Source: a virus
Lineage: Duplodnaviria; Caudoviricetes
IMG/VR virus record: IMGVR_UViG_3300031420_000495
Coordinates: 32,001 to 96,000 of that record
Reading direction: 5' to 3' (one strand)
DNA length: 64,000 bases
The position numbers were made by a program, and so were the translations under genes. Below are positions 5,809-37,278 of this stretch, piece by piece; position 1 is the first letter of the stretch; each line of letters starts with the position of its first letter. The notes below the pieces were generated by a model. It was not told the DNA's origin. It made no database searches and worked only from the letters and a program-made list of their open reading frames with translations.

Positions 5809-6360
5809 ATGAAAGTAACTGAACTACTCGAAGCAACCAGTCGCATTGTCGACCTGCGCGACCCAGACGATGCGCCTGGAGCTGTTGATCGTGAAGCCGC
5901 AGCGCGTGCAAAAGGCAAGAGCGATCAAGAAGCCGCAGTCGAGAATCTGAACAAACTCGTGTCGAAATACAAACTCGGTGGCGGCTGGAAAGTCGGAACG
6001 AGTTCGTCGATCGTCGGCACGTTCATCATGCCGGATCACAAGGGTGGAGCAGCGAAGGCCAAGTTCAAGACGAATGCTGGTGCAGCTGAAGCAACGTTGT
6101 GGGTGGCCGGTCGTTACGACGATCTTGTCCTCTCGCTGTATGATGTCGACATGTCGCGCGACCAGAAGAATGCAGCACTGGCGAAAATGAAAGAACTGTT
6201 GCCGGGCGTCTACTTCATGAAAGTACAATCCGACGATCGTCGCGATTTCAAATCCGTGTCATTCCACTTCGGTTATCCGTCGACATTCTCTGACAGCAAG
6301 AAATTTGCTGGCTTGAAGAAGTTCTTCGATTACCTGAAGAAAGAAGCGCAGTTCTCATGA
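5809..6360 (+). CDS. Hypothetical protein with MKVTELLEA leader (putative internal head protein)
   Basis: 183-aa ORF with phage-typical codons. Its leader is identical to that of 61829-62179. Confidence 0.75.
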   Translation: MKVTELLEATSRIVDLRDPDDAPGAVDREAAARAKGKSDQEAAVENLNKLVSKYKLGGGWKVGTSSSIVGTFIMPDHKGGAAKAKFKTNAGAAEATLWVAGRYDDLVLSLYDVDMSRDQKNAALAKMKELLPGVYFMKVQSDDRRDFKSVSFHFGYPSTFSDSKKFAGLKKFFDYLKKEAQFS

Positions 6361-6701
6361 AGGCCTTGCTTCTATCGTTGATGCTCATGTCTTCAGCCGC
6401 AATGGCTCAGGACATGATTACCTGCAAATATGATGGGAGTCAGATCGAGATGAATGCGTGCGCTGTGTGGGATTACAACGCAGCAGATTCGGTGCTCAAC
6501 CAGGAATATCAGAAAACGTTGGAACGTCTTGATGATCCTGGTCGAGATAAGCTTCGCGCAGAACAGCGCGAGTGGATAAAGCGTCGTGATGCTCGTTGCA
6601 AACCGAAGCGCATTGGCAACGGATCGAACTCCACGATCGAGTACTACACCTGCATGCAGAACTTCACGGAAATCCGTTCGCTGCAGCTTAAGACTTGGTA
6701 A
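6357..6701 (+). CDS. Secreted lysozyme-inhibitor LprI (DUF1311)-family protein
   Basis: Signal peptide MKALLLSLMLMSSAAMA and the LprI pattern C...Q.EMN.CA...AD..LN..Y...L...Q..W...RD..C...C. ATGA overlap with the upstream gene. Confidence 0.8.
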   Translation: MKALLLSLMLMSSAAMAQDMITCKYDGSQIEMNACAVWDYNAADSVLNQEYQKTLERLDDPGRDKLRAEQREWIKRRDARCKPKRIGNGSNSTIEYYTCMQNFTEIRSLQLKTW

Positions 6702-7932
6702 GTCTCAGATTCAAACTCTTAATCAGCCCTGGAATATCCTGCAGGTACTCTGCAGGGATTCCGTCAATACCGTCGTGAACCATTACACCATGGCGATCGA
6801 CAGCCTCCCAGATTTTATACCTCGCCTCACGTTCCCATTCGAAATACGACGAGAACACTTGCTTCTGGTTCGCCCGTGACGGGTTGAATCCAAGTTCGCT
6901 CATGCACACGATCTTGCGAGCACGTGCATACTGCTTTGCGATCGCTGACAACCGTTCACCAATGCGAATCAGATTCGATGGTGTAATGTCCTCAGCTGCT
7001 TTGATGATGATGTCTCGTGTGATTGAGTAGCTGCTCGGCCCAACCAGAATGCCCGGAGAAATCTTCGATCCATTGGCAAGGCTCATGCAGATTTTCTTCA
7101 CAACCCCGATATTTTCGTCGTTGTATTCCAGACCGAGGATGTCCATGCAGATTTCTTTCCGCCATTGTTTCTTGTCGCTCAACGAGCGAAGCAAGTCCGG
7201 GAATAGAAGCTGCACCATGTCTACTTGACGGCCGTATGCTTCGTGCACATGCTCCATCAAGTATTGGGTATACGCTGATTCAATATCGATGCCTTCACCG
7301 AACAAAGCTTCACGCAGCCATGATGGCCACGTTTCAACTGCGGCAACAGGCCACACTGACGTGTCGCGGAGTTGAAGCTTTCCTGCCGGAACGAAATAGA
7401 AGTTGACCTCCGGGCTTGGACGATTCAACAACCATTCTACTGGAGCAAGCAGATCGAGCCGACCAGACTTTGTCAGCCTTGCGAGGATTGCGGCTTTGTT
7501 CTGCTGCTGGACGTAAACCTTCGACACGGTTCCTTCCGCCGGCAAAGGCGGAGGAACGTATACGAGTTTTCGAGCAACGATTGGTGCAATGACTTCGGTT
7601 GGAAGTTTGCGTGGGATGACGGTACTGATTTCGTGACGATCGCCTACATGAAAGCCGGTCTGGACGATTTCGAAGAAATAGTCGAAGACGGTTTTGTAAT
7701 CATAGACCCATTCCCGCAGAGACATCAGACGCAAAGGAATTCGGCAGAATCCCAGTGGGTGACCAGACCTGATTGCCGCACGATGAATGTTTGCGAGATA
7801 CAAGATCAGGTCTTGCCTGTCTCGCATCATTCGTGGATGACGGCGGTCAATGTCGGGATAAAAGTTGTTGACGTTCAACGGGTCAAGTGCGTGCAGCTGC
7901 TCAGGGCTGCTCACACGATAGATGATCGTCAT
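6688..7932 (-). CDS. Hypothetical protein with family-A polymerase palm-like motifs
   Basis: Motif A-like GIDIESAY, motif B-like VKKICMSLANG and motif C-like MVHDGI occur in the correct order. No exonuclease domain. Confidence 0.55.
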   Translation of the reverse strand: MTIIYRVSSPEQLHALDPLNVNNFYPDIDRRHPRMMRDRQDLILYLANIHRAAIRSGHPLGFCRIPLRLMSLREWVYDYKTVFDYFFEIVQTGFHVGDRHEISTVIPRKLPTEVIAPIVARKLVYVPPPLPAEGTVSKVYVQQQNKAAILARLTKSGRLDLLAPVEWLLNRPSPEVNFYFVPAGKLQLRDTSVWPVAAVETWPSWLREALFGEGIDIESAYTQYLMEHVHEAYGRQVDMVQLLFPDLLRSLSDKKQWRKEICMDILGLEYNDENIGVVKKICMSLANGSKISPGILVGPSSYSITRDIIIKAAEDITPSNLIRIGERLSAIAKQYARARKIVCMSELGFNPSRANQKQVFSSYFEWEREARYKIWEAVDRHGVMVHDGIDGIPAEYLQDIPGLIKSLNLRLTKS

Positions 7933-7938
7933 GTCGAA

Positions 7939-8142
7939 TTACTTCACCGAGGTTTGGCGTTCGTGTTTCTTCAGGTGACGGTAGATACCGCGCAGCGAAT
8001 CCGGACGATTGATGATCGTGCTGGACAGATGCGATTGCGGTGCGTAGACGCGGTCGAGGGAAACCGAGCGACCGGCATCGATCATGTATGCAGCCATCTT
8101 GACTGCTTCGCGGCGAAGTTGTTTTGCGTGTTTTGCGTTCAT
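7939..8142 (-). CDS. Small basic hypothetical protein (early)
   Basis: 67 aa with SD GGAG, preceded by an extended -10 (TGcTACAAT). Confidence 0.7.
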   Translation of the reverse strand: MNAKHAKQLRREAVKMAAYMIDAGRSVSLDRVYAPQSHLSSTIINRPDSLRGIYRHLKKHERQTSVK

Positions 8143-9800: not shown

Positions 9801-10397
9801 TTATTGAATTATGCCTGAGTATCGTGGATTCAACTGCGAGTCGGCCCACTCAGGAATAAAGCCGAGATTGGATCGGAAGAACAGAACTTCCCAGTTCGAT
9901 GCTGATGCGGTTCCGAGCTTGCTCAGCTTCGGGCGGACGATGATGAACTTGACCGTTTCAGGATCATTCAAACCCTTCACGATGATCGGCATGTCGAGCC
10001 CGATGATCCGAACTTCGGTCTCCGGTCCAAACTGCTTCAGTTCAAAGGCCGGAGCAGGTAACTGGATCGAATGGATCGTGGACGGGTGCGGAGCTGGCAA
10101 CGACCGTTGGCCCTTGTGCGTCTCGCAGAATCTCATGACCGCATGCAACATCGCGTTGTACGAGAAATCATTCATTCCGCCTTGCTTGACGAGCTGTTTG
10201 ATAGTTTCACGGTCTGGCACATGATAGCCATTGCCCGCGTTTCGTTGCCTGGCGTTGTACGGACCCAGGAAATTGTCGAGTGCTTGATGAACCCTGAAGT
10301 GTGCTGCGACCATGCTTTCCAGGTCGCTGTAATCTTTGGAATTGGCTGGACGGCGCGCGTCGAGGCGCACACTCCAGCGTGGTAGTGTGTCAGTCAT
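9801..10397 (-). CDS. Hypothetical protein (MTDTLPRW...)
   Basis: 198 aa with typical codon usage, between the resolvase and the tube-like gene. Confidence 0.7.
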   Translation of the reverse strand: MTDTLPRWSVRLDARRPANSKDYSDLESMVAAHFRVHQALDNFLGPYNARQRNAGNGYHVPDRETIKQLVKQGGMNDFSYNAMLHAVMRFCETHKGQRSLPAPHPSTIHSIQLPAPAFELKQFGPETEVRIIGLDMPIIVKGLNDPETVKFIIVRPKLSKLGTASASNWEVLFFRSNLGFIPEWADSQLNPRYSGIIQ

Positions 10398-10401
10398 GAT
10401 T

Positions 10402-10953
10402 TTATTTCGGTGATACCCAGAACTCTGGATGCTTGATAAGTTCTTCGAACTCGTAGATGTCAATGTGCCTGCCAGGTTTGCAGAGCGTCAATGACGGCTG
10501 TGCGATGCCTTCCATGGTGCGAGCCAGGACTGCAACGAAGATTGGTGTGTGGTTCCACTTGAAGATGAGGACAGGTTCGCGACCGATCTTTGCCGAGTCG
10601 ACGACTGATTCTTCGAACCATTTGAATACGTTTGCCGCACCCGATACGAGGGACGTGAAGTTGTCCGTGGTCGCATACGATTTGCACTCGATCGAGTAAT
10701 GGAAACGATAGCCGACCACGTTCTCATTGACTGGAACGACGTCGGCATTGAATAGCTTGAGCGCTTCTTCGCCCATCATGGCACCGATGGTCGCCATGTT
10801 CTTCCCGCCGACACGAGCGCCGGAACCTGGGGAACGAATGAAGTTGATTGGGAGTGCTGCTGAGAGTTTCTTCGCGATCAGGGATTCGAATGCGTTACCC
10901 TTGCTCTTACCCATTCCTGGTTTGAGCGTGCGTTTTGGTTTTGCGTCTGGCAT
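10402..10953 (-). CDS. Holliday junction resolvase (PD-(D/E)xK)
   Basis: KSKGNAFE...RSPGSGA...AD...IECKSY motif set. SD GGAGG. Confidence 0.8.
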   Translation of the reverse strand: MPDAKPKRTLKPGMGKSKGNAFESLIAKKLSAALPINFIRSPGSGARVGGKNMATIGAMMGEEALKLFNADVVPVNENVVGYRFHYSIECKSYATTDNFTSLVSGAANVFKWFEESVVDSAKIGREPVLIFKWNHTPIFVAVLARTMEGIAQPSLTLCKPGRHIDIYEFEELIKHPEFWVSPK

Positions 10954-12858: not shown

Positions 12859-12866
12859 TATTTACT
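12859..12866 (-). promoter_or_regulatory. Late promoter AGTAAATA, overlapping the gp46 stop
   Basis: Motif lies 26 nt upstream of ATG 12833; SD GGAGG between. Confidence 0.7.
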
Positions 12867-14598
12867 CGGAAACTACAGAACTAAATCCATTCTCTTTGAC
12901 GATCTTCAAATCGTGGTCCAAACGGCCCTGAATCGATGGGCTGTGTGAGATAACGAACACCGACATGTTTTCTGTTCTGGACTTGTCCTTCAGGATTTTC
13001 ACGATCGATTCGATGCCCTGAACGTCAAGTGCGCCGTCCAGCTCGTCGATCATGAGCAGGTTCGTTTTGGCGTGCAAGTGGTGGAGGACGTCTCGGAAAG
13101 CCAGAGCCATCGCCGTATTGACACGTTTCTTCTCACCAGCCGACAGGTTTCCGAAGTCGAGTTCTCGACCGAATTCAGCAACCGTACATGACATATCAGC
13201 ATCGAATTTTACCACGTGGGGAAGACCCAAAGCATTCGTGTAATAATTGAGCCGTTCGTTCAGGAACGGAATCGACATGTTGATGATGCGTCGACGCACA
13301 AACGAGTGCTTGTCTGTGAGCAACTTCAGCAGGAATTGCTGGTGATCCAGACGGCGACGCAGCTTATCGACTTTCGTCGTATCAACGTTGTCACAACCTT
13401 CTGCGATCAGTTTCTCATGGGCTTCGGTGTGCGGATTGCTGGCGAGCGATAGCTCTTCGGCTTTCTTGCGGAGCACGGTCGAATTGGTGCGCGCATCGAT
13501 CAGTTCGTTCAGGTCAGTGTGCTTGATGAGCTTATTGACCTCGCCCAGACGATTCTTCCGAATATCTTCTTCAGCTTCCAGTGTCGAGATGTTCTCTTCA
13601 ACTTCAGCAAGTCGCGAGGACTTTTCTTCAAGAGCGGATACAATCCCGATCAGTTTGGCCGGAGCATCGACGAAAGGCTGCGTGCAGTACGGACACTGGG
13701 CATCTTCCAGATGAATCTTTTCCTTTGTCAGACGAGCAACATCGGAAGTCAGGATTGAACGATCCTTGCGAGCCGGCAACAGTTTCGCCGCGAGGTAAGC
13801 ACCACGCTGACTCAGCTGATTCTTCTCGTCATGCAGAGCTTGTTCGCCTTCGAAATCCACCTCGGCAATCTTCGCCAGGGTTTCATTGATGTCTGCGATT
13901 TCCTGAAGTCGATTCTCTTCCCAGCGTTTGACGCGTGCCGCAGCTTCGCGAACATGCTTCTTGTGCAGGTCGAGTGCAACCTCTTGTTGCTTGACGACAG
14001 CTTCGGCGATCTTGATGTCGGCTTCGGTTGTCTTGATCTTTTCTTTCAGGTTCTTCGCTTTGTCCGACAGCATGGTGATCTTGAACAACTCTTCGATCTG
14101 TGAACGTTGTGCTGCAATTGGGAGCTGAAGAAAAGCCGGGGAGTTACCTGAGAAAATAATGGTTTTGGTAAACAGTTCGTACGAAATCCCGATGATGTCC
14201 AGGATCATGTCGTCTGTTTCGTAGACTCCTTTGCCAGGTGTGATGTCTTCGCCATCGCGCCGAACTTCGATGCGGTATTCTTCACCGCGTGCGCGATAGA
14301 TGTCATACTCGACCCCGTCCTTTTCGAATATCAGACGGACTTCCATCTGCGTATTCTTTGTGGCATTGGTCGAGTTAATCAGTCTTTGCAGGGAGATATT
14401 GTCGAACGGCTTGTTGTATAATGCATAGCAAAGCGCGTTGATGATCGTGGTCTTGCCAGCTCCGTTGGAGCCACCTTTGTCCAGATTCTGGCCGGTGACT
14501 TCAACGGTTCCCTGGCCGTCCAGTTCGATAACGCTTTCGACGTTACCGAAGGACAGCATGTTCCTGATTGAAATACTTTTGAAGATGAGTGGTGTCAT
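12862..14598 (-). CDS. gp46: Recombination endonuclease ATPase subunit (SbcC/Rad50-like)
   Basis: Walker A GGSNGAGKT, zinc hook CPYC, signature LSAGE, Walker B LMIDE, H-loop ISH. Confidence 0.95.
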   Translation of the reverse strand: MTPLIFKSISIRNMLSFGNVESVIELDGQGTVEVTGQNLDKGGSNGAGKTTIINALCYALYNKPFDNISLQRLINSTNATKNTQMEVRLIFEKDGVEYDIYRARGEEYRIEVRRDGEDITPGKGVYETDDMILDIIGISYELFTKTIIFSGNSPAFLQLPIAAQRSQIEELFKITMLSDKAKNLKEKIKTTEADIKIAEAVVKQQEVALDLHKKHVREAAARVKRWEENRLQEIADINETLAKIAEVDFEGEQALHDEKNQLSQRGAYLAAKLLPARKDRSILTSDVARLTKEKIHLEDAQCPYCTQPFVDAPAKLIGIVSALEEKSSRLAEVEENISTLEAEEDIRKNRLGEVNKLIKHTDLNELIDARTNSTVLRKKAEELSLASNPHTEAHEKLIAEGCDNVDTTKVDKLRRRLDHQQFLLKLLTDKHSFVRRRIINMSIPFLNERLNYYTNALGLPHVVKFDADMSCTVAEFGRELDFGNLSAGEKKRVNTAMALAFRDVLHHLHAKTNLLMIDELDGALDVQGIESIVKILKDKSRTENMSVFVISHSPSIQGRLDHDLKIVKENGFSSVVSE

Positions 14599-15083
14599 TT
14601 ATGAACGTAGGGAGCAACGACCAAGTCTTTTGTCATTTCATCCGCCAAGCGATTGACGATTTCTTTTGACAGCAACTGGTCGTAAAATTGACTATGAGCA
14701 ATTATACCACGTTGCACTAGCTCAACAGTTTGTCTTATTTCAACGTCAGAAAGAGGCGCTGCTGGTGGAAAGTTCTCTGCACTGATTGGATACACGTCTT
14801 TGAAATAGTCGATGTCCATCTTGACATGATTGACGCATACTGGTTCATCGTACACGCCTTCATCGCAGCATGCATCTTCGCCCCAGTCGCCATCATCTTC
14901 TGGCCACTCGTCACCTGATGCAACGATTTCCGGGCCGTCATCCGATTCAGAATCGCAGCTGTCTTCACCATAGCCATAATAGCTGTACAGGGTATTGACG
15001 GCTTCGTCGAATGGTACGCCATTGAAGTCGAAGACTCCTTCGTCTCCGACTTTGCGTTCTGTTTTACGTGATGTGATTTTCAT
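14595..15083 (-). CDS. Acidic hypothetical protein between gp47 and gp46
   Basis: ATGA overlaps at both ends; D/E/C-rich middle. Confidence 0.65.
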   Translation of the reverse strand: MKITSRKTERKVGDEGVFDFNGVPFDEAVNTLYSYYGYGEDSCDSESDDGPEIVASGDEWPEDDGDWGEDACCDEGVYDEPVCVNHVKMDIDYFKDVYPISAENFPPAAPLSDVEIRQTVELVQRGIIAHSQFYDQLLSKEIVNRLADEMTKDLVVAPYVHK

Positions 15084-16147
15084 AGTTCCTCGTATAGTTC
15101 AATCAATGTTGCTGGGTCAATTGTTGGTGAAGGGCTTACGCCTTCGGTGATGAGCTGTCGTACTGTGTTGTCCAGGGACGAAAGATCAAGGTCGCCATCA
15201 ACGATGTCAAGGCCTTCCGTAATCATTTCCTTCCGGGCAACTTGATCCTCTTCAACCGAGAACTCCCGGAGATTCAGACCCTTTATCATCTCGTCGCGCA
15301 GAGCCTGCACGTCCGAGTAACCAATGTCCATGTCCAGAACGCAGCGGACACGAGCTTTTGCTGGGAACTCCGATTCACCACCGACAACACGTGTCAGACG
15401 AGTTTTGAAGAACAGCGGTGCGCCTTCCCAGTCGTGGAAGTAGACTTCATCGTTTGCAACGTCGAAGACTGCCATGCCACGAGCATCGTCACCAGCATCG
15501 CCGAAGTTTGTCGGGAATGTGTTGCCGATGTAGATAATGTTTCCATTCACCTGACGTTTGTGGTAGTGACCAGAGAAGATGTACTTCGGAGCCGCGAAGT
15601 CAGAAGCATCCGGACCGTGTTCCATCACACGCGTGTCGCCAGTGACGACGAAGTTACGGAACTCGAAGTGACCCATCACATACTTGTGGTCGTTGATGTC
15701 TTTCACCAGACCTGGATATTCTGCCCTGAACATGTACGGGGCCACGAACCAATCCTTGTTCAATTCAATCGGTTCGGAAACCAGAAGGAAGTTCTCAAGA
15801 TCGCGGAAGATGTCAGTCGAGAAAATGGTACGATCTTGGCGGTGATACAGATCGTGATTTCCGACGATCCAGATAATCGGGATGCCAAGGGCATTCAGCT
15901 TACGGCAACCTTCTGCTGCGCGGTCCATTGTTCGCACGTTGATCGCATTGCGGTTCTCGAAGAAGTCGCCCAGGAACGCGATGTGTGATGGCTTCTCTTC
16001 TTTCACCTTTTCGATAAACCAATCGATATATTCGAGGCAATCGAGATTGTGTTGGTCAGAGTTATTACGTGCACCGAAGTGGATGTCCGTGAACATGGCC
16101 AGCTTGGTGATCTTGTTAAATTTAGATAATGTAGAAGTCACTTTCAT
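15080..16147 (-). CDS. gp47: Recombination endonuclease nuclease subunit (SbcD/Mre11-like)
   Basis: Metallophosphoesterase motifs DIHFG, GDFF, GNHD, GHFE, SGHYH. Confidence 0.95.
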   Translation of the reverse strand: MKVTSTLSKFNKITKLAMFTDIHFGARNNSDQHNLDCLEYIDWFIEKVKEEKPSHIAFLGDFFENRNAINVRTMDRAAEGCRKLNALGIPIIWIVGNHDLYHRQDRTIFSTDIFRDLENFLLVSEPIELNKDWFVAPYMFRAEYPGLVKDINDHKYVMGHFEFRNFVVTGDTRVMEHGPDASDFAAPKYIFSGHYHKRQVNGNIIYIGNTFPTNFGDAGDDARGMAVFDVANDEVYFHDWEGAPLFFKTRLTRVVGGESEFPAKARVRCVLDMDIGYSDVQALRDEMIKGLNLREFSVEEDQVARKEMITEGLDIVDGDLDLSSLDNTVRQLITEGVSPSPTIDPATLIELYEEL

Positions 16148-16639
16148 TTACTCGTCCCTGGACGTGGTACGGAATGCGGTGTCATCAGAATTCAACGAGG
16201 ACCTGTTACGTTCCTGGAAAGAGAATGATGGGTTTGCGCCGGCATCAACCAACATTTGATCGCGAATATCGCGCTGCTTTTTCTCGTCTGCAAGATATTG
16301 CAAGAATGACCTGTAAGCCGCAGTCGTGTAGAAGGCAAATGGATTATCGGATTTCTCGGGATCGAACTTGTGCCAATTGGCGCAGAGGTTAACCACCGCG
16401 AAGGATACCATATCTTCTCGGAAAGTGTATTGACCGAATGATGGAATGAACGAATAACGTTCGGCAATCATGTAAAGCATTCGGGCTAACTCAGGGCTCA
16501 ACTTGTTACCATTTGCCTTGTCTTTCGCGATGGCTTCCATCAGCTGGGCATTTGTAACGTAGTGTGTTTTTGTACTACCGGTCGATTTTGCTCGCTTAGC
16601 GGGCGTGGTTTTTTGATGGACAGTTGGTTTCGTCGTCAT
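16148..16639 (-). CDS. gp55: Late-transcription sigma factor
   Basis: HYVTN...IAERYS...F..Y.FREDM....V.N.....FDPEKS.NPFA.YT.....SF. Confidence 0.9.
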   Translation of the reverse strand: MTTKPTVHQKTTPAKRAKSTGSTKTHYVTNAQLMEAIAKDKANGNKLSPELARMLYMIAERYSFIPSFGQYTFREDMVSFAVVNLCANWHKFDPEKSDNPFAFYTTAAYRSFLQYLADEKKQRDIRDQMLVDAGANPSFSFQERNRSSLNSDDTAFRTTSRDE

Positions 16640-16714: not shown

Positions 16715-16748
16715 ACTTTTTTGTGAATCAGCGGGTTCAGCCCGTATC

Positions 16749-29001: not shown

Positions 29002-32000
29002 ATGACAAAGAACACAGACTTCCGCTTGCCTTTCAATGACCTGACAAACTACGTTCCGCAGAATTTGCGGAACCCTGTCATTTCGTCTTTGATCGATAAC
29101 CTTTTCAATCGGTTCATGACTCATGACGAGAGTGTGCCGCTGTACGGTTATGTTGGCCGCAAGCCTGCCTCACCTGACGATCGTTCACCACGCGTTCCGC
29201 AACCAAGCGTTGAGCGCGACATCAATTCCATCGTGCCTGTGCTCAACTTCAAGTTGGGTCCAGATCGTTACGCATTCACAATCGAAGACCTGATCGCGAA
29301 GGCAGAAGCCATCGGCATCTCGCCTGGCTCATTGTCTTGGATGTATTCCCAGGGTAACAACTATCTGCCGCCGATCGACCTGGACAAGTTCACGAACTTC
29401 TTCAACTATTACTGGGTTGCCAAAGCATTGCCGGCTGTTCCATCATTGTCCTGGAATCCTACACTCGCGCCGGAATACTACACGATCGCTGCACCACTTC
29501 CAGCAGACCTGAACAAGCTGAACGTTGTTGCAGCATCAACAAAGAACACTGTGCTGACTGGTACTGGTTTCGGTAAGCTGTCGTTCCGTATCACATTCAC
29601 GTCGCCAACTGCGTTCACCATTACACCGATCGGTACGCTGGGCGCATATACGCCTATCGCGTCGTCATTCAACCTGACAACGAACAACGATCACTTCGCA
29701 TACCGTGTACAACAAGGCACAGATGTGAAAACTCTTCTGGAGTTCGACATCACCCGTGATGAAGTGTTTGACCAGTTCGGCAACAGCATTGGACTTTCCG
29801 GATTCGAAACCGGAGATGAATTCTACATCGATGTGCAGTTCCTCACCCGCAACTACACGCTGACCTTCAATGGTGCGCCTGGTGTCAAGGGCAAGTTGAC
29901 CCACATCAAGACGCTGAACGAATACCAGATCATCGACAATGTTCGCGTATCTGCTGGCGACCGTGTACTCATCAAGAGCAATTCGGTCACTGAAGACGGT
30001 ATCTACATTGTTTCCGCTGGTGAATGGAAACGTGCACCAGACTTCGATGGCGAAACCCGCGTTGCTGGCGCTCGTGTGTTCGACAAGAACCGTAACACGA
30101 TGTACGTCTCGATCGTCGGTGGCGGTGGGCTTGGTTTCAAAGTCGAAGGTACCGCTGGTGAAGCTGTGTCAAATACGAATCAATGGCAAGAAGGCAACTA
30201 CTGGGTTTCCGGTGAGAAGCTGGCTGACATGGGCCTTGCACGCTCGGACGTGGTCCAGGCGGTGCGCCCAATCATCGAATACGCTGGTGACCTTCAGCTG
30301 AACAGCTACGTGAAGAACGGTGTACCATCGGATTCCGGTTCGTCTTACAAACAAATCAAGACTGAATTCAACCAGCTTCCGATGTTCGACCTGTTCCGTT
30401 ACGATGGTTCGCACTCGGGTCTCGTCTCTTCTGTATTCTACTACGAAGAAGACCTGACTGCGGAACTCGATTTGAAACTGCAGAAGCGTGTCAAGAAGTC
30501 CACAAACGATTCCGCAGACTTCATCTTCAACCACGGTATGGCCGATGCTGATGGACAGTTGCTGTTCGTCAAACGTTCTGGCAAACTGAAAACTATCTGG
30601 CATGCTGGTTACTATGAGCCAACAATCGTTGATGTAACGTATGGTGGCGCTGGTAACGGAACTCTCGATGGCTTGAAAGCAATCGGGTTTGCTCAGCAAC
30701 AAGTCTGGACAATGGTTGCTGAAACACCAACTACATTCACAATCTCCGGCTCGAAGATGCCTGTGCTGCCATCGCCTTACAACAAGGTAACTGTTGGCAC
30801 ACTCTACAAGAACGGCGAACTCGAATTCACCATTCAGCCTGGTAACATTGCATTCACGCCTGGTGACAGCTTTGTGATCCGTGTTGCCAATATGGAATCT
30901 CCTCGCTACGTATACCGTGACGAGAACGATGGCATCTACGACCGTCTCGGTGGACCTGCAATGGACCCGAACGGCGAAGGCGCATGGCAGATTCCACGCA
31001 CATTCTACAACAACCCGTACAACGATTCCCGTTCGCCTGCACCAGAAGGTTCACTGTACTCCCACTTCCGTGGTATCCTGACGAACCAGGTTGAAGGTCA
31101 ACCTATCGATTATGCATTCGGCGGCAGCATCAAGCTCTGGAGCGAACAGCAAACTCTGTTGGCTTCGTTGTTGATGCAACGCGACATGACGCCTGTCTCT
31201 GTGATCGATTTGGCACAGCGCCAGTACGAAACCGCTCTGAACACCGTCAAAGACATTTACAACCAGCAGAAAGCCAAGTTCGGACCTGTCAAAACGTACG
31301 ATGATCTGGTGAAACTCTTTGACCTGATCCAGAGCATCCGTGCAAAGGACAATGATGTCCGCTCGGTCCTGTACGATTCGACCTCGCCTTTGGTTGGTTT
31401 CCCAGCAACGCTGCCGCAGCTGGGACTGGCTGAACTCGTTCAACCGACATTGGACTTCGATACTGTCCTTGGCCGCATGGTCCTGGTGCATCACGATGGC
31501 CACAAATCCCTGGTTGAAACCGATGACACCCTGAATTCCCTGATGCTCCTGGTCGAAACCCGACTCTATGAAGGCATCAACCCGAATGCTCGCAAGTACG
31601 ACTTCACTCAGCTGAAGAACGATCCGGAATACCAGGATCAGCTGAAGAAAGAACTGTTTGCGTTTGCAGCAATGAACGGCCTTGATCCACTGGGTTCGGA
31701 CTATGTTGCGACCGATCCATTCACCTGGAACTATTCGAAAGCGACTGGACTCCCGGCTGCAATGCCTGAAAAGATTCCAGGTCGTTGGCACGAACTCCTG
31801 AAGTCACATCAGGCAATGATTCAAGGCGTGATTCCGACAGAACGTCCGAACCTGGAACCGTGGAAGCTGATGGGTTATCCAACGTACGATGCATGGTGGG
31901 CAACTGTTCCTGCTGAGAAACGTGCGGCATACGTTGGCACGAAGTTCGATAATTCCTGGGTATCTGCTGGCGCTGTCAAGGCTGTGGATACCACGCCAGG

Positions 32001-35000
32001 CATCACGCCTCTCTTCGGTCTTCAAACAATTGATGGCGTGCAACTCGTTGCAGGCGATCGCGTGCTTCTGACAAATGAAACCGCGCCAGAGAACAATGGC
32101 ATCTGGGTTGCGGCTGCAAGCGGCTGGCAACGTGCTATGGGACTCCCGGCAAAATACCTGGTGACTGTGACGGCTGGCACACAACGTGGCGGAGTCTGGG
32201 GTAATACCGGTACGAACACCTTTGCGCAATCCCGTTCCTGGTCGAATCTTCTGTGGTCGGACATCCAGGCAGCGCGTCCTGGTCTTCGCCTGAGCGTCAA
32301 CACGGTGACGGATGAACTCCTGCCACCGTACGTCAACGCGAATGCTCAGTCTGCACAGAATGCACTGACGAACATTGTACCACAAGGAACCTCGCTTGGA
32401 TACAGTTTTGGCGATATGTCGCCAATCGAAACCGTCTGGTCGCGTTCGCTGGAATACGGTTACGCACGTGCTCGAGCACTGTTCCGTTACGATCCACTAG
32501 CATTCCTCGGATTCTGCTGGGGATTCAACTGGGTTGAGGTCGATGGTATCCTGTACGATGGCTTCGACATGTCGATGCCAGGACACAAACGGTTCCGACT
32601 GCATGGCGACCTGATCGCTCCGGTTGCCCGTACACCTATGACCGTGACCGGCAGCGGCACGGCTGTGGTGACGTACAATGCCTACGATAAGAATCGCAAG
32701 CAGAACTTCACCGTCACTCGTGATGGAAAAGTTCTTGGTTATGCGACCGTGGGAACACAGGCGGTCATCGGCGGTCTGACATTCACCATCAAGGATGAAG
32801 GTCATCCGTTCCGTATTGGCGACCGTTTCGAAATTACCGATACTTCAGCCATCTTCGTTCCAACGACGACCTACAAATACCTGGGCTTCGGTCAAGTATT
32901 CACCCACGCGCTTCGCGAAACCTCGATCGATACCGAATCCTCGTTCGCGGTATCTGCATTCCGTGACTGGGAAGTCAACATGGGTTATCGTGCTGGTGGC
33001 CTGGTTGCGACTGATGACCTGCAGGTTTACACCAACGAAGAAACTCTTTCGACGTCCGCGTACGATCTGTTGTTCAAGAAGAACCACATTGCCCGCAATG
33101 AATGGGTTCAAGCTCTTCGTATCAGCACCATTGACATGGGTCAAAAGGTCCAGATGGAAACCGGATTCGCACCGTTTGCACGTGGCGAAGACTGGGTGTT
33201 CCGTATCGAGGGTTACAACCCGCGTTATACCTCGATCACCTACTACGACATGGACCTAGCCGGGAACCCGATCGACTTCCATGCGCTTGGAAAAGCACAC
33301 AGCCAACGCGAATGGTATCACCCAACGCATATCAAGGGTACGGTCACAACTGATCTGCCATTGACAATCACCGGTGTCCAGAACGTTGTCAACTTCCTCT
33401 TCGGTTACTCGAAGTACCTGGAATCGCGTGGCTGGGAATTCAACCAGGATTGGGAATACAAGACTGATGCAGAGACCGGTCGCACTCGTAACTTCCAGCT
33501 GGAAATCGAGAAGTTCATCGACCGTTGCTACGCTGGTATTGAACTTGGCCAGGGTCACGTGGTCAACCCGTTCATCGACCGTGCTTGGTTTAACCAGGAT
33601 ACTGGTCTCCTGTCCGAGTTCATTGATACTTCGCTGTTCGATGTCACCGGTCACCCTGGTGTATTCGACGTTGTTGGTATGAAGTTCCACAAAGATGACC
33701 TGGACGTTGTGCGTACCAATGCACAAAGTTCTTTCGGTGCTGCGGCTCCGATGTTCTCGGCTCACATTCAGATCGATGACTTCGAGCACGTTTTCATCTT
33801 CAACAACTATTCCCAGCCTTCGACTGGTTCCGGACTCCTGTACGATCCATTCAGTGGCGCACGCGTTGTAACCTACAAGTTCAATGGTCGTAAACAAGCT
33901 ACCAACACGATGCGTCCTGAGTTTGGCGGACACTTCCTGGTCGGCAACGAGGTTCACCAGAACCTCCAGGCTTCGACGGATAACATCGCGAACCTGTACG
34001 ATGCGAACCATGCATTCGAGAATGAACTGACCACTCGTCATGCGCTGGCGCTGCTCGGCTTCAACCGCAAGGAATACTTCGATGACCTGGATATTTCTGA
34101 ACGCACCCAGTTCAACTTCTGGCGCGGTCTCATCCAGGCAAAGGGCACAAACCTTTCCATCGATGCGTACCTGAACAACAATCGTTTCGACGATGCGAAG
34201 ATCGACGAATACTGGGCTTACAAGCTGGCAGAGTACGGTGACGCGCGTCCTCGTGTTTACCCGGAACTGAAACTGTCTGTCAATGATGCGCTGACGCAAT
34301 TCACGCGCCTCCAGTTCGATGCGAAAGTTCCTGAGCCAGACTTTACCCAGGTCGATGTCTTCGACGAGGAACGTTGGTTCAGTATCGATGACATGAACCA
34401 GGCTGTGCACTTTGAGGCAGCAGATGCTGGTACATTCACCATCGATGCGGAAGTCGGCAAGGTCTACAAACTTCCGTTCGTGGCAGATGAACTGGTACCG
34501 GGACAGTTTACCAAGATCAATGCAACCACCATCAAGTCGACGACCGACGGGGTCCTGACTGTTCTTGGCAAGGGTCCTGCACGTCCTCGCTTCAACCCGG
34601 TGAAACTGTTCAACTATGTTGACAATGAACTGGTGGCAGAAATCCCTGTGTGGCATCCTGCCGCAGGCATCCACACGCCTGGTGCAATGGAAGGCATCAA
34701 CATCATTTCCGACCTGAACCCTGCGAAGTACAACTACTCGAAGCAGGTTGTGAACAACAACACCTACGATCCACTCCGTGCCTGGGGTAAGAACGAGGTT
34801 GGTCGCGTCTGGTTCGATACCCGTAACCTCGCTTACGTTCCTTACTACGATGCAACTATCTTCCCGAACCTGGACGAACGCCTGTCCCGTTGGGGTACGC
34901 TGGCTGACTATGCAACCGTCGATGTGTATGAGTGGACACAATCCAGTGTTCCGCCAAGCGAGTTCGATGCGCTGGCTCAGAAGCAAGCAGGTGATGCTGC

Positions 35001-37278
35001 GCTCGATCCTCAGACGAAAGCGGCAGGACAAGTTGCGCAGAAGCAAACGTATTCGCGTGAACGTCGTTGGGGAGTTCGCCCGATTGCTTGGTCATATTCC
35101 TCAGTTCCAACCGATGTCGACTGGGAAGCTACGCCACCAATGGCGGGCGGTTCGACCAATGCGAACCTGACACTTGCCAGCGGTCTTGCTATCCTGGATC
35201 GCGGTACATTTGCAGGTTACGGCATCACGGCTGGTATGCACCTCGGTGCGTGGAACAATGATCCGGCAAATCCGAAACCGCTGAGCGAATACCTGATCGA
35301 GGATCGTTTCTTGAAACTCATCATGGGCGAAAACGGCGGACAGTTCTCTCAGGCTAATGTCAACGACTACACCATAACGATCGATCTGCTGGCGCATACA
35401 GAATATGCCGGACAGTTTGATTTCTCGGCTGTGACCGTCCTGACCGAAGGAGAACTTCCAACGATCACGATGACGCACATCGATACCGACACTGCGGACA
35501 CCGAGCTGGTGACTGCGGACGACATCAACTTCGATGCTGGTCAATACACGATCATGTTCCCGGCATTCGGCATCCGTGTCAATGTTGCATCGAAGGGTAT
35601 TCGTCCATCGACAGACATGCTGGCAGCGATTGTCCAGGGTCTGGCAGATCACATCACGCTGCTCGATGCAGCGACTGTGACTCCTATTGTACCATCAGCT
35701 GACGTCGATTTGTCGAATGATGTTGTGCTGCAAACGAAGATTGCTGGTAAGACTGGTGCAACGTTCACTGCTACCTCGACGATTGTCCCGGGAACTATCA
35801 CGGTGTTTGTTGATGACAAAGTCACAACTGCGTATACCATCAACGGGAATACGTTGACCGTGCCGGCTCCAGTCAATGCCAAGGTCGATTTCGTGGTTCA
35901 CCAAGACCTGGAAGAGACACAGAATTCTCGTTACGGCTGGAGGGTTTGGAATGTTCCGACCCAGGCTGAACTGAACCGCGATGCGGAACCTCCGTTCTCG
36001 TCCTGGAAACCGTACGTTGGTGACTTCACCGAGCCGACAACCGTGGGCCTTGCAATGATCCAGGAAGCAGTTGAGTATGCGAAAGCACCGTTGACTCTTC
36101 GTAATGGCGAAGTCATCGAGCGATTCCAGACGACCTGGACCGAGTGGTCTGTCCTGCAAAACGTTGTTCTTTCTGCAACAGCAGAGGTAACGGGTCCTGT
36201 CACATTCACACACGATGTGGCAATGGAACCATCGCGCGTCTCGGTGTACGTCAACGGTATTGCCCAGCTGAAAGCTGCGTTCACCATCAATGGCAAAGTC
36301 CTGACCGTGAACAGCGTTCCAGCTGGTTCAGAAGCGACCGTAATCATTCGTAAATATGAGCCGACGATCAAAGAGCTCGCATTCGATCCTGACGTTGCAG
36401 AAGACCTCACGTTCCAGAAACAATACCAGCAAGACTACGAATACGTGGCAGTCCCTGTCCGCGACCGTGAAGGCGCGCTGACAACGACCCTGTATTACTT
36501 CTGGGTCAAGAACAAGACGACGCCTGCAGTTGGCAAGAAGCAATCTGTGCAAGCAATTGCACAAGAACTCCGTGAGGGTCCAGAGAACTTCCTGACATTC
36601 CAGAACATTTCTGATTCGGCTCCGTACTTCTACGATGCCATCACTATCTCTGGCCTGTCGTACATCGTGACGAAGGACAACACGTTCAAGCTGCGTTTCA
36701 CCAGGAACTTCACGCTCCGTGATGATCCGGAAGAGCTGAACCTGAAGAATGTTCACACTGAATGGGCGCTGATGCGCTTCGGCCAGAAGAGCAGGATTCC
36801 GGAAACGCTGTGGAACAAGCTGGTGGATTCTGTTGTTGGTATCGATCAGGCAGGCAACACTGTGCCTGCGATCCGCCGTGTTCTCTACGATGAACGCAAT
36901 GGAACCCGCACACAGTTCGGCTTCGGACCAGAACAAACGTTGGCGCCATCGGAATTGCTCAAATCGTCAATTGCCCATACTATCTTAAATACCAGGCTGA
37001 TCAACGAAAGCTCACCAACAGGCGCACCAGATTACATCACGTTCCTCGACCTCGATGAAAGTGACAAGTGGTTCGAGGATGCTGTGGCATCGCGTAAGAC
37101 CATGACGGACATCTGGAACCAGGCATCAGTGGCACAGGTGAATGAGATTTTCTTCGCCGCGCTTGATGACATATTGGCAAGCAACTACGAATTGTCTGAT
37201 ATTTTTAAGACATCTCGTATTTCCGCATATAGTATTAAGGTAGTAACCGGTTCACCGATTGCACCTACATTTGAATGA
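29002..37278 (+). CDS. Giant (2758 aa) baseplate wedge/tail structural protein
   Basis: Uninterrupted ORF in the baseplate block. N-terminal PIDLDKF.NF.NYYW, two GDRVL...ENGI...W.RA fibre-type modules, beta-rich repeats. Confidence 0.85.
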   Translation: MTKNTDFRLPFNDLTNYVPQNLRNPVISSLIDNLFNRFMTHDESVPLYGYVGRKPASPDDRSPRVPQPSVERDINSIVPVLNFKLGPDRYAFTIEDLIAKAEAIGISPGSLSWMYSQGNNYLPPIDLDKFTNFFNYYWVAKALPAVPSLSWNPTLAPEYYTIAAPLPADLNKLNVVAASTKNTVLTGTGFGKLSFRITFTSPTAFTITPIGTLGAYTPIASSFNLTTNNDHFAYRVQQGTDVKTLLEFDITRDEVFDQFGNSIGLSGFETGDEFYIDVQFLTRNYTLTFNGAPGVKGKLTHIKTLNEYQIIDNVRVSAGDRVLIKSNSVTEDGIYIVSAGEWKRAPDFDGETRVAGARVFDKNRNTMYVSIVGGGGLGFKVEGTAGEAVSNTNQWQEGNYWVSGEKLADMGLARSDVVQAVRPIIEYAGDLQLNSYVKNGVPSDSGSSYKQIKTEFNQLPMFDLFRYDGSHSGLVSSVFYYEEDLTAELDLKLQKRVKKSTNDSADFIFNHGMADADGQLLFVKRSGKLKTIWHAGYYEPTIVDVTYGGAGNGTLDGLKAIGFAQQQVWTMVAETPTTFTISGSKMPVLPSPYNKVTVGTLYKNGELEFTIQPGNIAFTPGDSFVIRVANMESPRYVYRDENDGIYDRLGGPAMDPNGEGAWQIPRTFYNNPYNDSRSPAPEGSLYSHFRGILTNQVEGQPIDYAFGGSIKLWSEQQTLLASLLMQRDMTPVSVIDLAQRQYETALNTVKDIYNQQKAKFGPVKTYDDLVKLFDLIQSIRAKDNDVRSVLYDSTSPLVGFPATLPQLGLAELVQPTLDFDTVLGRMVLVHHDGHKSLVETDDTLNSLMLLVETRLYEGINPNARKYDFTQLKNDPEYQDQLKKELFAFAAMNGLDPLGSDYVATDPFTWNYSKATGLPAAMPEKIPGRWHELLKSHQAMIQGVIPTERPNLEPWKLMGYPTYDAWWATVPAEKRAAYVGTKFDNSWVSAGAVKAVDTTPGITPLFGLQTIDGVQLVAGDRVLLTNETAPENNGIWVAAASGWQRAMGLPAKYLVTVTAGTQRGGVWGNTGTNTFAQSRSWSNLLWSDIQAARPGLRLSVNTVTDELLPPYVNANAQSAQNALTNIVPQGTSLGYSFGDMSPIETVWSRSLEYGYARARALFRYDPLAFLGFCWGFNWVEVDGILYDGFDMSMPGHKRFRLHGDLIAPVARTPMTVTGSGTAVVTYNAYDKNRKQNFTVTRDGKVLGYATVGTQAVIGGLTFTIKDEGHPFRIGDRFEITDTSAIFVPTTTYKYLGFGQVFTHALRETSIDTESSFAVSAFRDWEVNMGYRAGGLVATDDLQVYTNEETLSTSAYDLLFKKNHIARNEWVQALRISTIDMGQKVQMETGFAPFARGEDWVFRIEGYNPRYTSITYYDMDLAGNPIDFHALGKAHSQREWYHPTHIKGTVTTDLPLTITGVQNVVNFLFGYSKYLESRGWEFNQDWEYKTDAETGRTRNFQLEIEKFIDRCYAGIELGQGHVVNPFIDRAWFNQDTGLLSEFIDTSLFDVTGHPGVFDVVGMKFHKDDLDVVRTNAQSSFGAAAPMFSAHIQIDDFEHVFIFNNYSQPSTGSGLLYDPFSGARVVTYKFNGRKQATNTMRPEFGGHFLVGNEVHQNLQASTDNIANLYDANHAFENELTTRHALALLGFNRKEYFDDLDISERTQFNFWRGLIQAKGTNLSIDAYLNNNRFDDAKIDEYWAYKLAEYGDARPRVYPELKLSVNDALTQFTRLQFDAKVPEPDFTQVDVFDEERWFSIDDMNQAVHFEAADAGTFTIDAEVGKVYKLPFVADELVPGQFTKINATTIKSTTDGVLTVLGKGPARPRFNPVKLFNYVDNELVAEIPVWHPAAGIHTPGAMEGINIISDLNPAKYNYSKQVVNNNTYDPLRAWGKNEVGRVWFDTRNLAYVPYYDATIFPNLDERLSRWGTLADYATVDVYEWTQSSVPPSEFDALAQKQAGDAALDPQTKAAGQVAQKQTYSRERRWGVRPIAWSYSSVPTDVDWEATPPMAGGSTNANLTLASGLAILDRGTFAGYGITAGMHLGAWNNDPANPKPLSEYLIEDRFLKLIMGENGGQFSQANVNDYTITIDLLAHTEYAGQFDFSAVTVLTEGELPTITMTHIDTDTADTELVTADDINFDAGQYTIMFPAFGIRVNVASKGIRPSTDMLAAIVQGLADHITLLDAATVTPIVPSADVDLSNDVVLQTKIAGKTGATFTATSTIVPGTITVFVDDKVTTAYTINGNTLTVPAPVNAKVDFVVHQDLEETQNSRYGWRVWNVPTQAELNRDAEPPFSSWKPYVGDFTEPTTVGLAMIQEAVEYAKAPLTLRNGEVIERFQTTWTEWSVLQNVVLSATAEVTGPVTFTHDVAMEPSRVSVYVNGIAQLKAAFTINGKVLTVNSVPAGSEATVIIRKYEPTIKELAFDPDVAEDLTFQKQYQQDYEYVAVPVRDREGALTTTLYYFWVKNKTTPAVGKKQSVQAIAQELREGPENFLTFQNISDSAPYFYDAITISGLSYIVTKDNTFKLRFTRNFTLRDDPEELNLKNVHTEWALMRFGQKSRIPETLWNKLVDSVVGIDQAGNTVPAIRRVLYDERNGTRTQFGFGPEQTLAPSELLKSSIAHTILNTRLINESSPTGAPDYITFLDLDESDKWFEDAVASRKTMTDIWNQASVAQVNEIFFAALDDILASNYELSDIFKTSRISAYSIKVVTGSPIAPTFE

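Follow-up and report, generated by a model that had tools for sequence, protein, structure and literature searches.

A predicted minimal polymerase of the Pol I/T7 RNA polymerase superfamily in a DNA-break-processing operon of giant T4-like phages

Why does a phage with a family-B DNA polymerase also encode a small protein bearing the motifs of another polymerase superfamily? The question was raised by an open reading frame (ORF; P0001) at positions 6688–7932, minus strand (414 amino acids plus stop), in a stretch of 64,000 nucleotides of viral DNA, here called the window, which corresponds to positions 32,001 to 96,000 of the IMG/VR record IMGVR_UViG_3300031420_000495. The initial annotation had described the product as a stand-alone, degenerate family-A polymerase domain with an unrelated N-terminus. 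We found that the protein has a polymerase fold with conserved catalytic residues, and that its gene is inherited vertically at the end of a conserved operon. With moderate confidence, we regard it as an accessory, operon-linked polymerase of the Pol I/T7 RNA polymerase (RNAP) superfamily, most likely one that synthesises short segments (probably DNA) on intermediates of recombination or repair.

Fold, conserved residues and family of the protein

The structure of P0001 was predicted by AlphaFold2 from a 59-row alignment, with a mean predicted local distance difference test (pLDDT) value of 93.7 and a predicted template modelling score of 0.86. Among the matches listed by Foldseek for the PDB, only family-A DNA polymerases were present (KlenTaq, Bst, Klenow, Aquifex and M. 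smegmatis Pol1), with a best E-value of 6e-4 and a probability of 1.00. The model was also searched with VIA, an exhaustive structure search independent of Foldseek, against 48,161 representative chains. The top 19 chains were all PolA or single-subunit RNAPs (ssRNAPs) and covered model residues about 130–414. The best was Pol theta (Z 10.6, 246 residues aligned, 4.3 Å), followed by a KlenTaq variant (10.4), Klenow (9.8), Aquifex Pol1 (9.6), the apicoplast Pol (9.1) and Pol nu (8.8), and further by the yeast mitochondrial RNAP (mtRNAP; 8.7), T7 DNA polymerase (DNAP; 8.4), T7 RNAP (7.9), Pol gamma (7.8) and N4 RNAPII (5.7). The rows below these were unrelated small ferredoxin-like domains, which matched the palm alone. 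With a polymerase palm and fingers evident from AlphaFold2 and Foldseek, the description as a stand-alone domain of the family-A/ssRNAP type was borne out.

The polymerase core (residues about 130–414; positions 6691–7545, minus strand) consisted, according to the model and VIA, of a short two-helix thumb, a β-hairpin, the palm and the fingers. In the model, the thumb helices 146–156 and 159–169, which are shorter than in Pol I, and the hairpin strands 175–183 and 189–194 preceded the palm. D216 was placed at the end of strand 214–217, which was followed by helix 220–233, K279 to N287 were within the long fingers helix (272–286), and H386–D387 formed the turn between strands 383–385 and 388–390. 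No exonuclease domain was present in the model. The best matches in BFVD were three uncharacterised proteins of uncultured Caudovirales (E 3e-11 to 3e-6), and after those came 'helicase/primase/polymerase' proteins of virophages, polinton-like viruses and giant viruses, together with ordinary phage PolAs. In the ESM Atlas, the matches were clusters with D5_N or DUF5906, which are helicase parts of TVpol fusions, and unnamed phage clusters of 400 amino acids.

The N-terminal domain (residues 1–125; positions 7558–7932, minus strand) was α/β in the model, with no recognisable fold in the structure searches. Folded alone, it reached a pLDDT of 85. Its best VIA match had a Z of 4.1 (archaeal virus coat proteins), its Foldseek matches had E-values of 0.08 or worse, and no usable match was obtained among the named clusters of the ESM Atlas. 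Scattered winged-helix matches at a Z of about 3 (GntR-type PhnF, RepE, Pi, CAP, TFIIE and ORC) might hint at a winged-helix-like core, which we do not count as a finding. The N-terminus is indeed unrelated, in that residues 1–125 matched no polymerase accessory domain.

The conservation of the family was counted in 158 members, each of at least 340 amino acids. D216, D387, H386, K279, R189, R258, Q223, E367 and R371 were identical in all 158, and N287 was retained in 156. Position 221 was occupied by Tyr in 150 members, Phe in five, Met in two and Leu in one. Position 275, the site of the Arg of the RxxxK motif in PolA and T7 RNAP, was Ile, Leu or Val in 144 of the 158. Furthermore, in an alignment of 28 diverse members with identities down to 23%, the invariant residues were G184, R189, P195, P203, R207, F211, D216, Q223, R258, K279, G288, W366, E367, R371, G382, H386, D387 and G391. 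The codon of R189, the invariant β-hairpin Arg equivalent to the template-contacting Arg of TV-Pol and PolA, lies at 7366–7368 on the minus strand.

The three polymerase motifs were in the order given by the initial annotation, namely GIDIESAYTQ (D216), VKKICMSLANGS (K279, N287–G288) and MVHDGIDG (H386–D387), all on the minus strand. Motif A spans G214–Q223 (7264–7293), with the catalytic D216, Y221 five residues past this Asp (D+5) and the invariant Q223 seven residues past it (D+7). Motif B spans K279–S289 (KKICMSLANGS; 7066–7098), with the invariant K279, M283, and N287 in place of Tyr. Motif C (H386–G391, HDGIDG; 6760–6777) contains the catalytic D387. This agreement of motifs is far beyond chance, and the aspartates, whose variation in homologues would have refuted the initial annotation, are invariant. 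The term 'degenerate' was misleading, because all catalytic residues are kept, the replacements being confined to the Tyr and Arg of motif B. Judged from the fold and these alignments, the protein is probably an intact minimal polymerase with catalytic residues under strong purifying selection.

The family was isolated in sequence searches. The protein had no match in Pfam (E up to 10), PHROGs, NCBIfam or PADLOC, and none was found among 50,697 cultured phage records with either tblastn or megablast. A word-seeded search found 260 relatives, all metagenomic, 'hypothetical' and without a Pfam domain, several of them on contigs of 320–375 kb, and the family thus numbers more than 260 proteins. 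An exhaustive HMMER search of 1.84 billion cluster representatives gave 42 clusters at the 50% identity level. A profile of 59 members matched no chain among the PDB sequences, and a profile search of a large protein collection gave the same polymerase family alone among the matches listed. The DNA_pol_A profile (PF00476) had no match in the whole genome. There was none for PF00940 or Pfam RNA_pol either, with the protein or in the genome; the genome search shows little alone, since the control genomes also gave none. Moreover, the family profile found nothing in the whole genomes of Microcystis phage Ma-LMM01 (a TV-Pol carrier), Flavobacterium phage immuto 3-5A (a divPolA1 carrier), Vibrio phage 1.063.O (a divPolA2 carrier) and Ralstonia phage RsoM2USA. 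The family is a sequence-isolated new variant within the known class of minimal superfamily-A polymerases.

Operon position, inheritance and source genome

The polymerase gene is the last of a conserved minus-strand operon. The order is gp55-like late sigma (Sigma70_r2; 16148–16639), the gp47/SbcD/Mre11-like subunit (15080–16147), the gp46/SbcC/Rad50-like subunit (12862–14598), a PDDEXK_15 nuclease whose PHROG name is RusA-like junction resolvase (10402–10953), p220 (198 amino acids from its likely start; 9801–10397) and the polymerase. The synteny was surveyed by tblastn with the window proteins over 76 loci, 71 of them from IMG/VR; many of the loci in which a given gene was missing are short or cut contigs. 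The gp46 gene was found in 59 of the 76 loci, p220 in 53, the PDDEXK nuclease in 52, gp47 in 48 and the gp55-like gene in 43. Wherever found, these partners preceded the polymerase and shared its strand. The one exception was L071, in which the contig is cut at the polymerase and the block is downstream on the opposite strand. In addition, a gp26-like hub gene was convergent downstream of the polymerase in 64 of the 76 loci. The three most divergent homologues (23–27% identity) were preceded by Metallophos (gp47), SMC_N (gp46), small genes and PDDEXK_15, and in one lineage the stop of the PDDEXK nuclease overlaps the polymerase start.

The identity of the polymerase to P0001 was correlated with that of its partners (Spearman 0.89 for gp46, 0.91 for gp47 and 0.84 for p220). 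As its divergence tracks that of gp46, gp47 and p220, the polymerase has descended vertically as a core gene, and it is one of a large clade of uncultured phages of 290–375 kb, without annotated function. A mobile cassette or element was also considered and was ruled out by the fixed position and by the divergence tracking gp46/gp47.

The IMG/VR record that contains the window is 257 kb long and about 71% complete, and its source is an uncultured giant T4-like phage. Matches to a gp26-like baseplate hub, a tape-measure-like protein, a gp6-like wedge and a gp5-like lysozyme-hub were found, besides gp46/gp47 and the gp55-like sigma. A family-B polymerase (PolB) is encoded elsewhere in the same genome, in agreement with the claim of the initial annotation that a T4-like phage normally uses such an enzyme. 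The genome also encodes a DnaB-like helicase, and the adjoining ORF gave a weak Toprim match (17.8 bits, below the cut-off of 22.1). Taken together, the T4-like baseplate, gp46/47, gp55-like sigma, PolB and DnaB-like helicase point to a lytic T4-like jumbo phage. The record is labelled 'provirus' in IMG/VR. By gp46, the nearest cultured phages were RsoM2USA (38%), the PA5oct group, Atu_ph07 and Phosso.

RsoM2USA has homologues in the order gp47-gp46-PDDEXK-p220-s67, with a convergent gp26-like hub. At the position of the polymerase there is a region of 1.4 kb with no ORF above 77 amino acids and no annotated feature (L080:12287-13687; MG752970.1 251624-253024). A search of this gap for a decayed polymerase by tblastn gave only weak collinear scraps (best E 0.09), and neither the family hidden Markov model (HMM) on six-frame translations nor Rfam gave a match, so no pseudogene is claimed.

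The s67 gene named above encodes a basic protein of 67 amino acids in the window (7939–8142, minus strand), its stop 6 nucleotides upstream of the polymerase. Its family comprises basic proteins of 60–115 amino acids with a conserved MNxKxAKxLR helix at the N-terminus and GIYxxLKK at the C-terminus, the part between them being variable. An s67 gene was directly upstream in roughly 30 of the 67 related loci that include the polymerase start, such as L010, L011, L012, L018, L025 and others, and its stop often overlaps the polymerase start. In one metagenomic ORF (P0105, 506 amino acids), s67 was fused to the polymerase. The predicted complex of the polymerase with s67 had a score of 0.00, which was obtained without control runs and weighs neither for nor against binding. 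The conserved operon member p220 had no match in Pfam, PHROG or NCBIfam. Its language-model look-alikes in the ESM Atlas, with scores of 0.93–0.94, included clusters named 'putative transposase (fragment)' (SSO2105_N), MJ0013 and Aq_aa04; they share fewer features than expected within one family and serve as a lead only.

Active-site make-up and probable role

The active site was compared with the sequences of T7 gene 1, T7 gene 5 and N4 gp16 from GenBank records. D216 and H386–D387 aligned by pattern with D475 and H653–D654 of T7 DNAP. For motif B, the sequences were VKKICMSLANGSK in the phage polymerase, TKRSVMTLAYGSK in T7 RNAP, KQAIMTALYGS in N4 gp16 and KTFIYGFLYGA in T7 DNAP. Motif B of the phage polymerase is of the RNAP type, because it has the Lys, the Met at K+4, the Ser/Thr and the Gly-Ser. 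In a forced alignment, the family HMM placed motif B exactly on residues 628–642 of T7 RNAP, with a score that was not significant. At D+7, the invariant Gln of the family corresponds to Gln in T7 RNAP and N4 gp16, and to Arg in T7 DNAP. At D+5, the family has Tyr/Phe, both RNAPs have Gly, and T7 DNAP has Glu, which is the steric gate in PolA. At K+8, the Asn takes the place of Y639 of T7 RNAP, which senses ribose, of the Tyr of N4 gp16 and of Y530 of T7 DNAP, so the replacement of the usual Tyr reported by the initial annotation was confirmed. The active site is thus a mosaic in which two motif features are of the RNAP kind and the two sugar-sensing positions differ from those of either class. 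The aromatic residue at the steric-gate position would argue mildly for the use of deoxynucleoside triphosphates (dNTPs).

In the favoured reading, the protein would be a catalytically competent, proofreading-free and short-thumbed polymerase, with a core of about 285 residues after a family-specific domain of 125 residues. It would be an accessory enzyme of low processivity, acting on the intermediates left by end resection by the Mre11/Rad50-like nuclease and by junction cleavage by the junction nuclease. There it might fill gaps, extend invading or annealed 3' ends, or prime synthesis. Short-stretch synthesis in recombination or repair seems most likely because the gene always ends an operon for DNA-break processing and junction cutting. 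The protein is probably not the replicase, because the genome encodes PolB and, with a weak Toprim ORF adjoining, a DnaB-like helicase; the helicase and this ORF also make a role as the sole replicative primase less likely. DNA is weakly preferred over RNA as the product because a bulky Tyr/Phe occupies D+5, where PolA has its steric-gate Glu and ssRNAPs have Gly.

Several points weigh against this reading. The gene context suggests a role in recombination or repair, and such evidence is circumstantial. RsoM2USA keeps gp47-gp46-PDDEXK-p220-s67 without the polymerase, so the module can work without it. RNA may be the product, because motif B (K..xM[ST]xAxGS) and the Gln at D+7 resemble T7 RNAP and N4 RNAPII, not T7 DNAP. 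Moreover, nucleotide binding may be unusual, because the RxxxK Arg and the motif B Tyr are missing.

The third of these points leads to the strongest of the alternatives, which we still consider rather unlikely: the protein may be a miniature ssRNAP or RNA-primase, in which the N-terminal domain would recognise a site and the core would start RNA de novo. The RNA would serve as replication-restart primers or as a few special transcripts. Motif B of the family matches T7 RNAP and N4 gp16 far better than T7 DNAP, with the common pattern K-x-x-x-M-[TS]-x-A/L-x-G-S, and the Gln at D+7 is common to both RNAPs. mtRNAP, T7 RNAP and N4 RNAPII (gp15/gp16) were among the VIA matches given above, and the N4 RNAPII catalytic subunit, with 404 amino acids, is near the phage polymerase in size. 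The same possibility was raised for divPolA2 by Yutin et al. (PMC11348598). However, the sugar-sensing Tyr of the RNAPs has become Asn in nearly all members, and the Gly at D+5, which leaves room for the 2'-OH in RNAPs, has become a bulky Tyr/Phe. DNA polymerases also ranked slightly above RNAPs in both fold searches, and the polymerase had no Pfam RNA_pol match. Being a single chain of 414 amino acids, it seems to have no space for a promoter-binding N-terminal domain of the T7 type. Furthermore, the phage has the gp55-like sigma for transcription by the host RNAP, and the weak Toprim ORF is primase-like.

A related possibility, which we judge unlikely, is a reduced and altered ssRNAP. By its motif B and motif A Gln, the protein would belong to the ssRNAP branch, its core having been cut down to about 285 residues. 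Changes at both sugar-sensing positions (Gly to Tyr at D+5 and Tyr to Asn at K+8) would have retooled it into a DNA primase-polymerase. It would start or extend DNA at recombination intermediates made by the Mre11/Rad50-like and PDDEXK nucleases of the phage. If this were true, T4-like phages would have a third kind of priming enzyme, and the protein would rank with the smallest self-contained polymerases of the superfamily.

Relation to known minimal polymerases and remaining alternatives

Measured against the known classes, the protein shared a Klenow-type palm with inserted fingers, the motif A Asp and the (H)D of motif C with family A. The PF00476 profile and the R-x-x-x-K...Y-G form of motif B were absent, though K279 and G288 are invariant. 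Of the features of T7-like ssRNAPs (PF00940), Y639 and the small residue at D+5 were lacking, N287 and Y221 being there instead. Other features of these enzymes are a promoter-binding N-terminal domain, a specificity loop and an intercalating hairpin; the N-terminal domain of P0001 matched no known structure clearly. No family like this one is mentioned in Czernecki et al. 2023 (PMC10201439) or in a 2026 survey of bacterial polymerases. The closest published kinds are TV-Pol and divPolA2, and profile searches joined the family to neither.

TV-Pol was defined by a thumb of two antiparallel helices, an invariant Arg in a hairpin, a pair of Asp residues in the palm and RxxxK in the fingers (Iyer, Abhiman and Aravind 2008, PMC2579912), and is exemplified by the N-terminal domain of Sputnik V13 and by the TVpol-helicase proteins of virophages and polinton-like viruses. 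Three of these four features were found in P0001, namely the two-helix thumb, the hairpin Arg R189 and the palm Asp residues D216 and D387. Of the RxxxK in the fingers, the Lys alone is kept, the Arg being Ile/Leu/Val. Like TV-Pol, the phage polymerase is a minimal superfamily-A core without an exonuclease, with an RNA recognition motif (RRM) palm whose first strand is followed by the inserted fingers, and it occurs alongside a regular replicase. It was different from TV-Pol in that its N-terminal domain is α/β and not all-helical, and in its vertical inheritance in a T4-like operon with gp46/gp47. Moreover, P0001 has no helicase fusion, and a helicase, integrase or resolvase-transposon context was not found in the five loci with gene tables, the 76 loci not having been queried for helicase or integrase.

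divPolA2, for example AUR84708 of Vibrio phage 1.063.O, has about 430 amino acids, no canonical thumb and an N-terminal domain of unknown nature, and occurs in PolB-encoding phages; Yutin et al. (2024, PMC11348598) suggested that it may be an RNAP or a DNAP for repair. The phage polymerase resembles it in the intact palm and fingers, the lack of an exonuclease, the globular N-terminal domain of unknown fold, the PolB in the genome and the presence of both DNAPs and ssRNAPs among the structural matches. However, hhalign found no significant match to divPolA2, whether a single sequence or a profile of 21 members was used (profile probability 0.2%). In divPolA2, motif B still has its Tyr and motif C reads FDE, whereas the phage polymerase has Asn and HD, and divPolA2 neighbourhoods are variable, whereas the position after gp47-gp46-PDDEXK is fixed.

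CcPol-MP sets the precedent for primase activity of an A-family domain paired with a small protein (Bebel 2020, PMC7581432; Rice 2022 preprint). The arrangement of P0001 is similar to that of CcPol-MP and the primases formed by PolA with a single-stranded DNA-binding protein (SSB) in SCCmec and mobile elements of Firmicutes, in that a truncated PolA-type catalytic protein is encoded beside a small protein. The CcPol polymerases differ in their recognisable descent from Pol I, their partial exonuclease domain, their OB-fold SSB partner and their helicase and recombinase neighbours. No such feature was found for the phage polymerase, the absence of helicase genes holding for the five loci with gene tables, others not having been queried.

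These likenesses raise the possibility, doubtful in our view, of a DNA primase-polymerase of the TV-Pol/CcPol type, which would make dNTP chains de novo, possibly with the small partner encoded beside it. The three TV-Pol features and the CcPol-MP precedent are consistent with it, as are the small basic protein directly upstream in many loci, its stop often overlapping the polymerase start, and the structural matches in BFVD and the ESM Atlas to TV-Pol-helicase fusions of virophages and polinton-like viruses. On the other hand, P0001 has no helicase fusion, no D5/SF3 helicase was adjacent in the gene tables of the five loci, and the RxxxK Arg is absent. The small protein is missing in roughly half of the loci and is kept in RsoM2USA, which lacks the polymerase, and the family profile had no match in Ma-LMM01, which carries TV-Pol.

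A template-independent nucleotidyltransferase, which would add tails to ends or produce a signal in the form of an oligonucleotide or polymer, for instance to evade defence or to protect ends, seems very unlikely. In its favour, the thumb is reduced, motif B lacks both the Tyr that stacks on the template and the Arg that binds phosphate, and Pol theta, the best structural match, is reported to perform template-independent synthesis as well (Czernecki et al., PMC10201439). Against this, the invariant R189 corresponds to the Arg assigned to template contact in the TV-Pol work (PMC2579912), and the protein has no PADLOC match and no defence-type context. That the protein is a pseudo-polymerase without activity, retained for DNA binding or as a scaffolding subunit, is hardly credible: the motif B Tyr and Arg are lost and vestigial PolA-derived proteins are known (Rice 2022), but both metal-binding Asp residues are invariant down to 23% identity, and so are the Lys of motif B, the His of motif C and the Arg of the hairpin, a pattern unexpected for a scaffold.

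Minimal superfamily-A polymerases (TV-Pol, CcPol, divPolA1 and divPolA2) are reference points for the origin of DNAPs, RNAPs and primases from one palm-and-fingers core. To our knowledge, CcPol alone among them has been assayed. The family described here adds a well-conserved and easily expressed member of 414 amino acids with a fixed genetic link to DNA-break processing. Its active-site make-up is unusual: motif B is RNAP-like, Asn replaces the gating Tyr, and the steric-gate position is aromatic. If active, it would show what the T4-like replisome lacks that a second polymerase supplies, and it could be a compact enzyme of practical use.

Some minor features of the locus were also recorded. 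A weak GGTGA is present 11 nucleotides 5' of the polymerase ATG. The 3' ends of the polymerase gene and of a convergent LprI/DUF1311-like gene (6357–6701, plus strand) overlap by 14 nucleotides (6688–6701), with no terminator-like site between them. Promoter and terminator scans around the operon gave results at chance level only, and the T4 late-promoter motif TATAAATA was not found near the polymerase gene. Elsewhere in the window, two giant adjacent plus-strand ORFs at 29002–37278 (2758 amino acids) and 37285–41355 (1356 amino acids) had no Pfam family at E up to 0.001. The gp55-like sigma has 163 amino acids (Sigma70_r2 E 1.7e-5) and is directly upstream of gp47, as in the T4 gene order 55-47-46. 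Just upstream of its gene, a sigma-70-like promoter match (TTTGCA, 18 nucleotides, TG-TATAGT) was found at 16715–16686.

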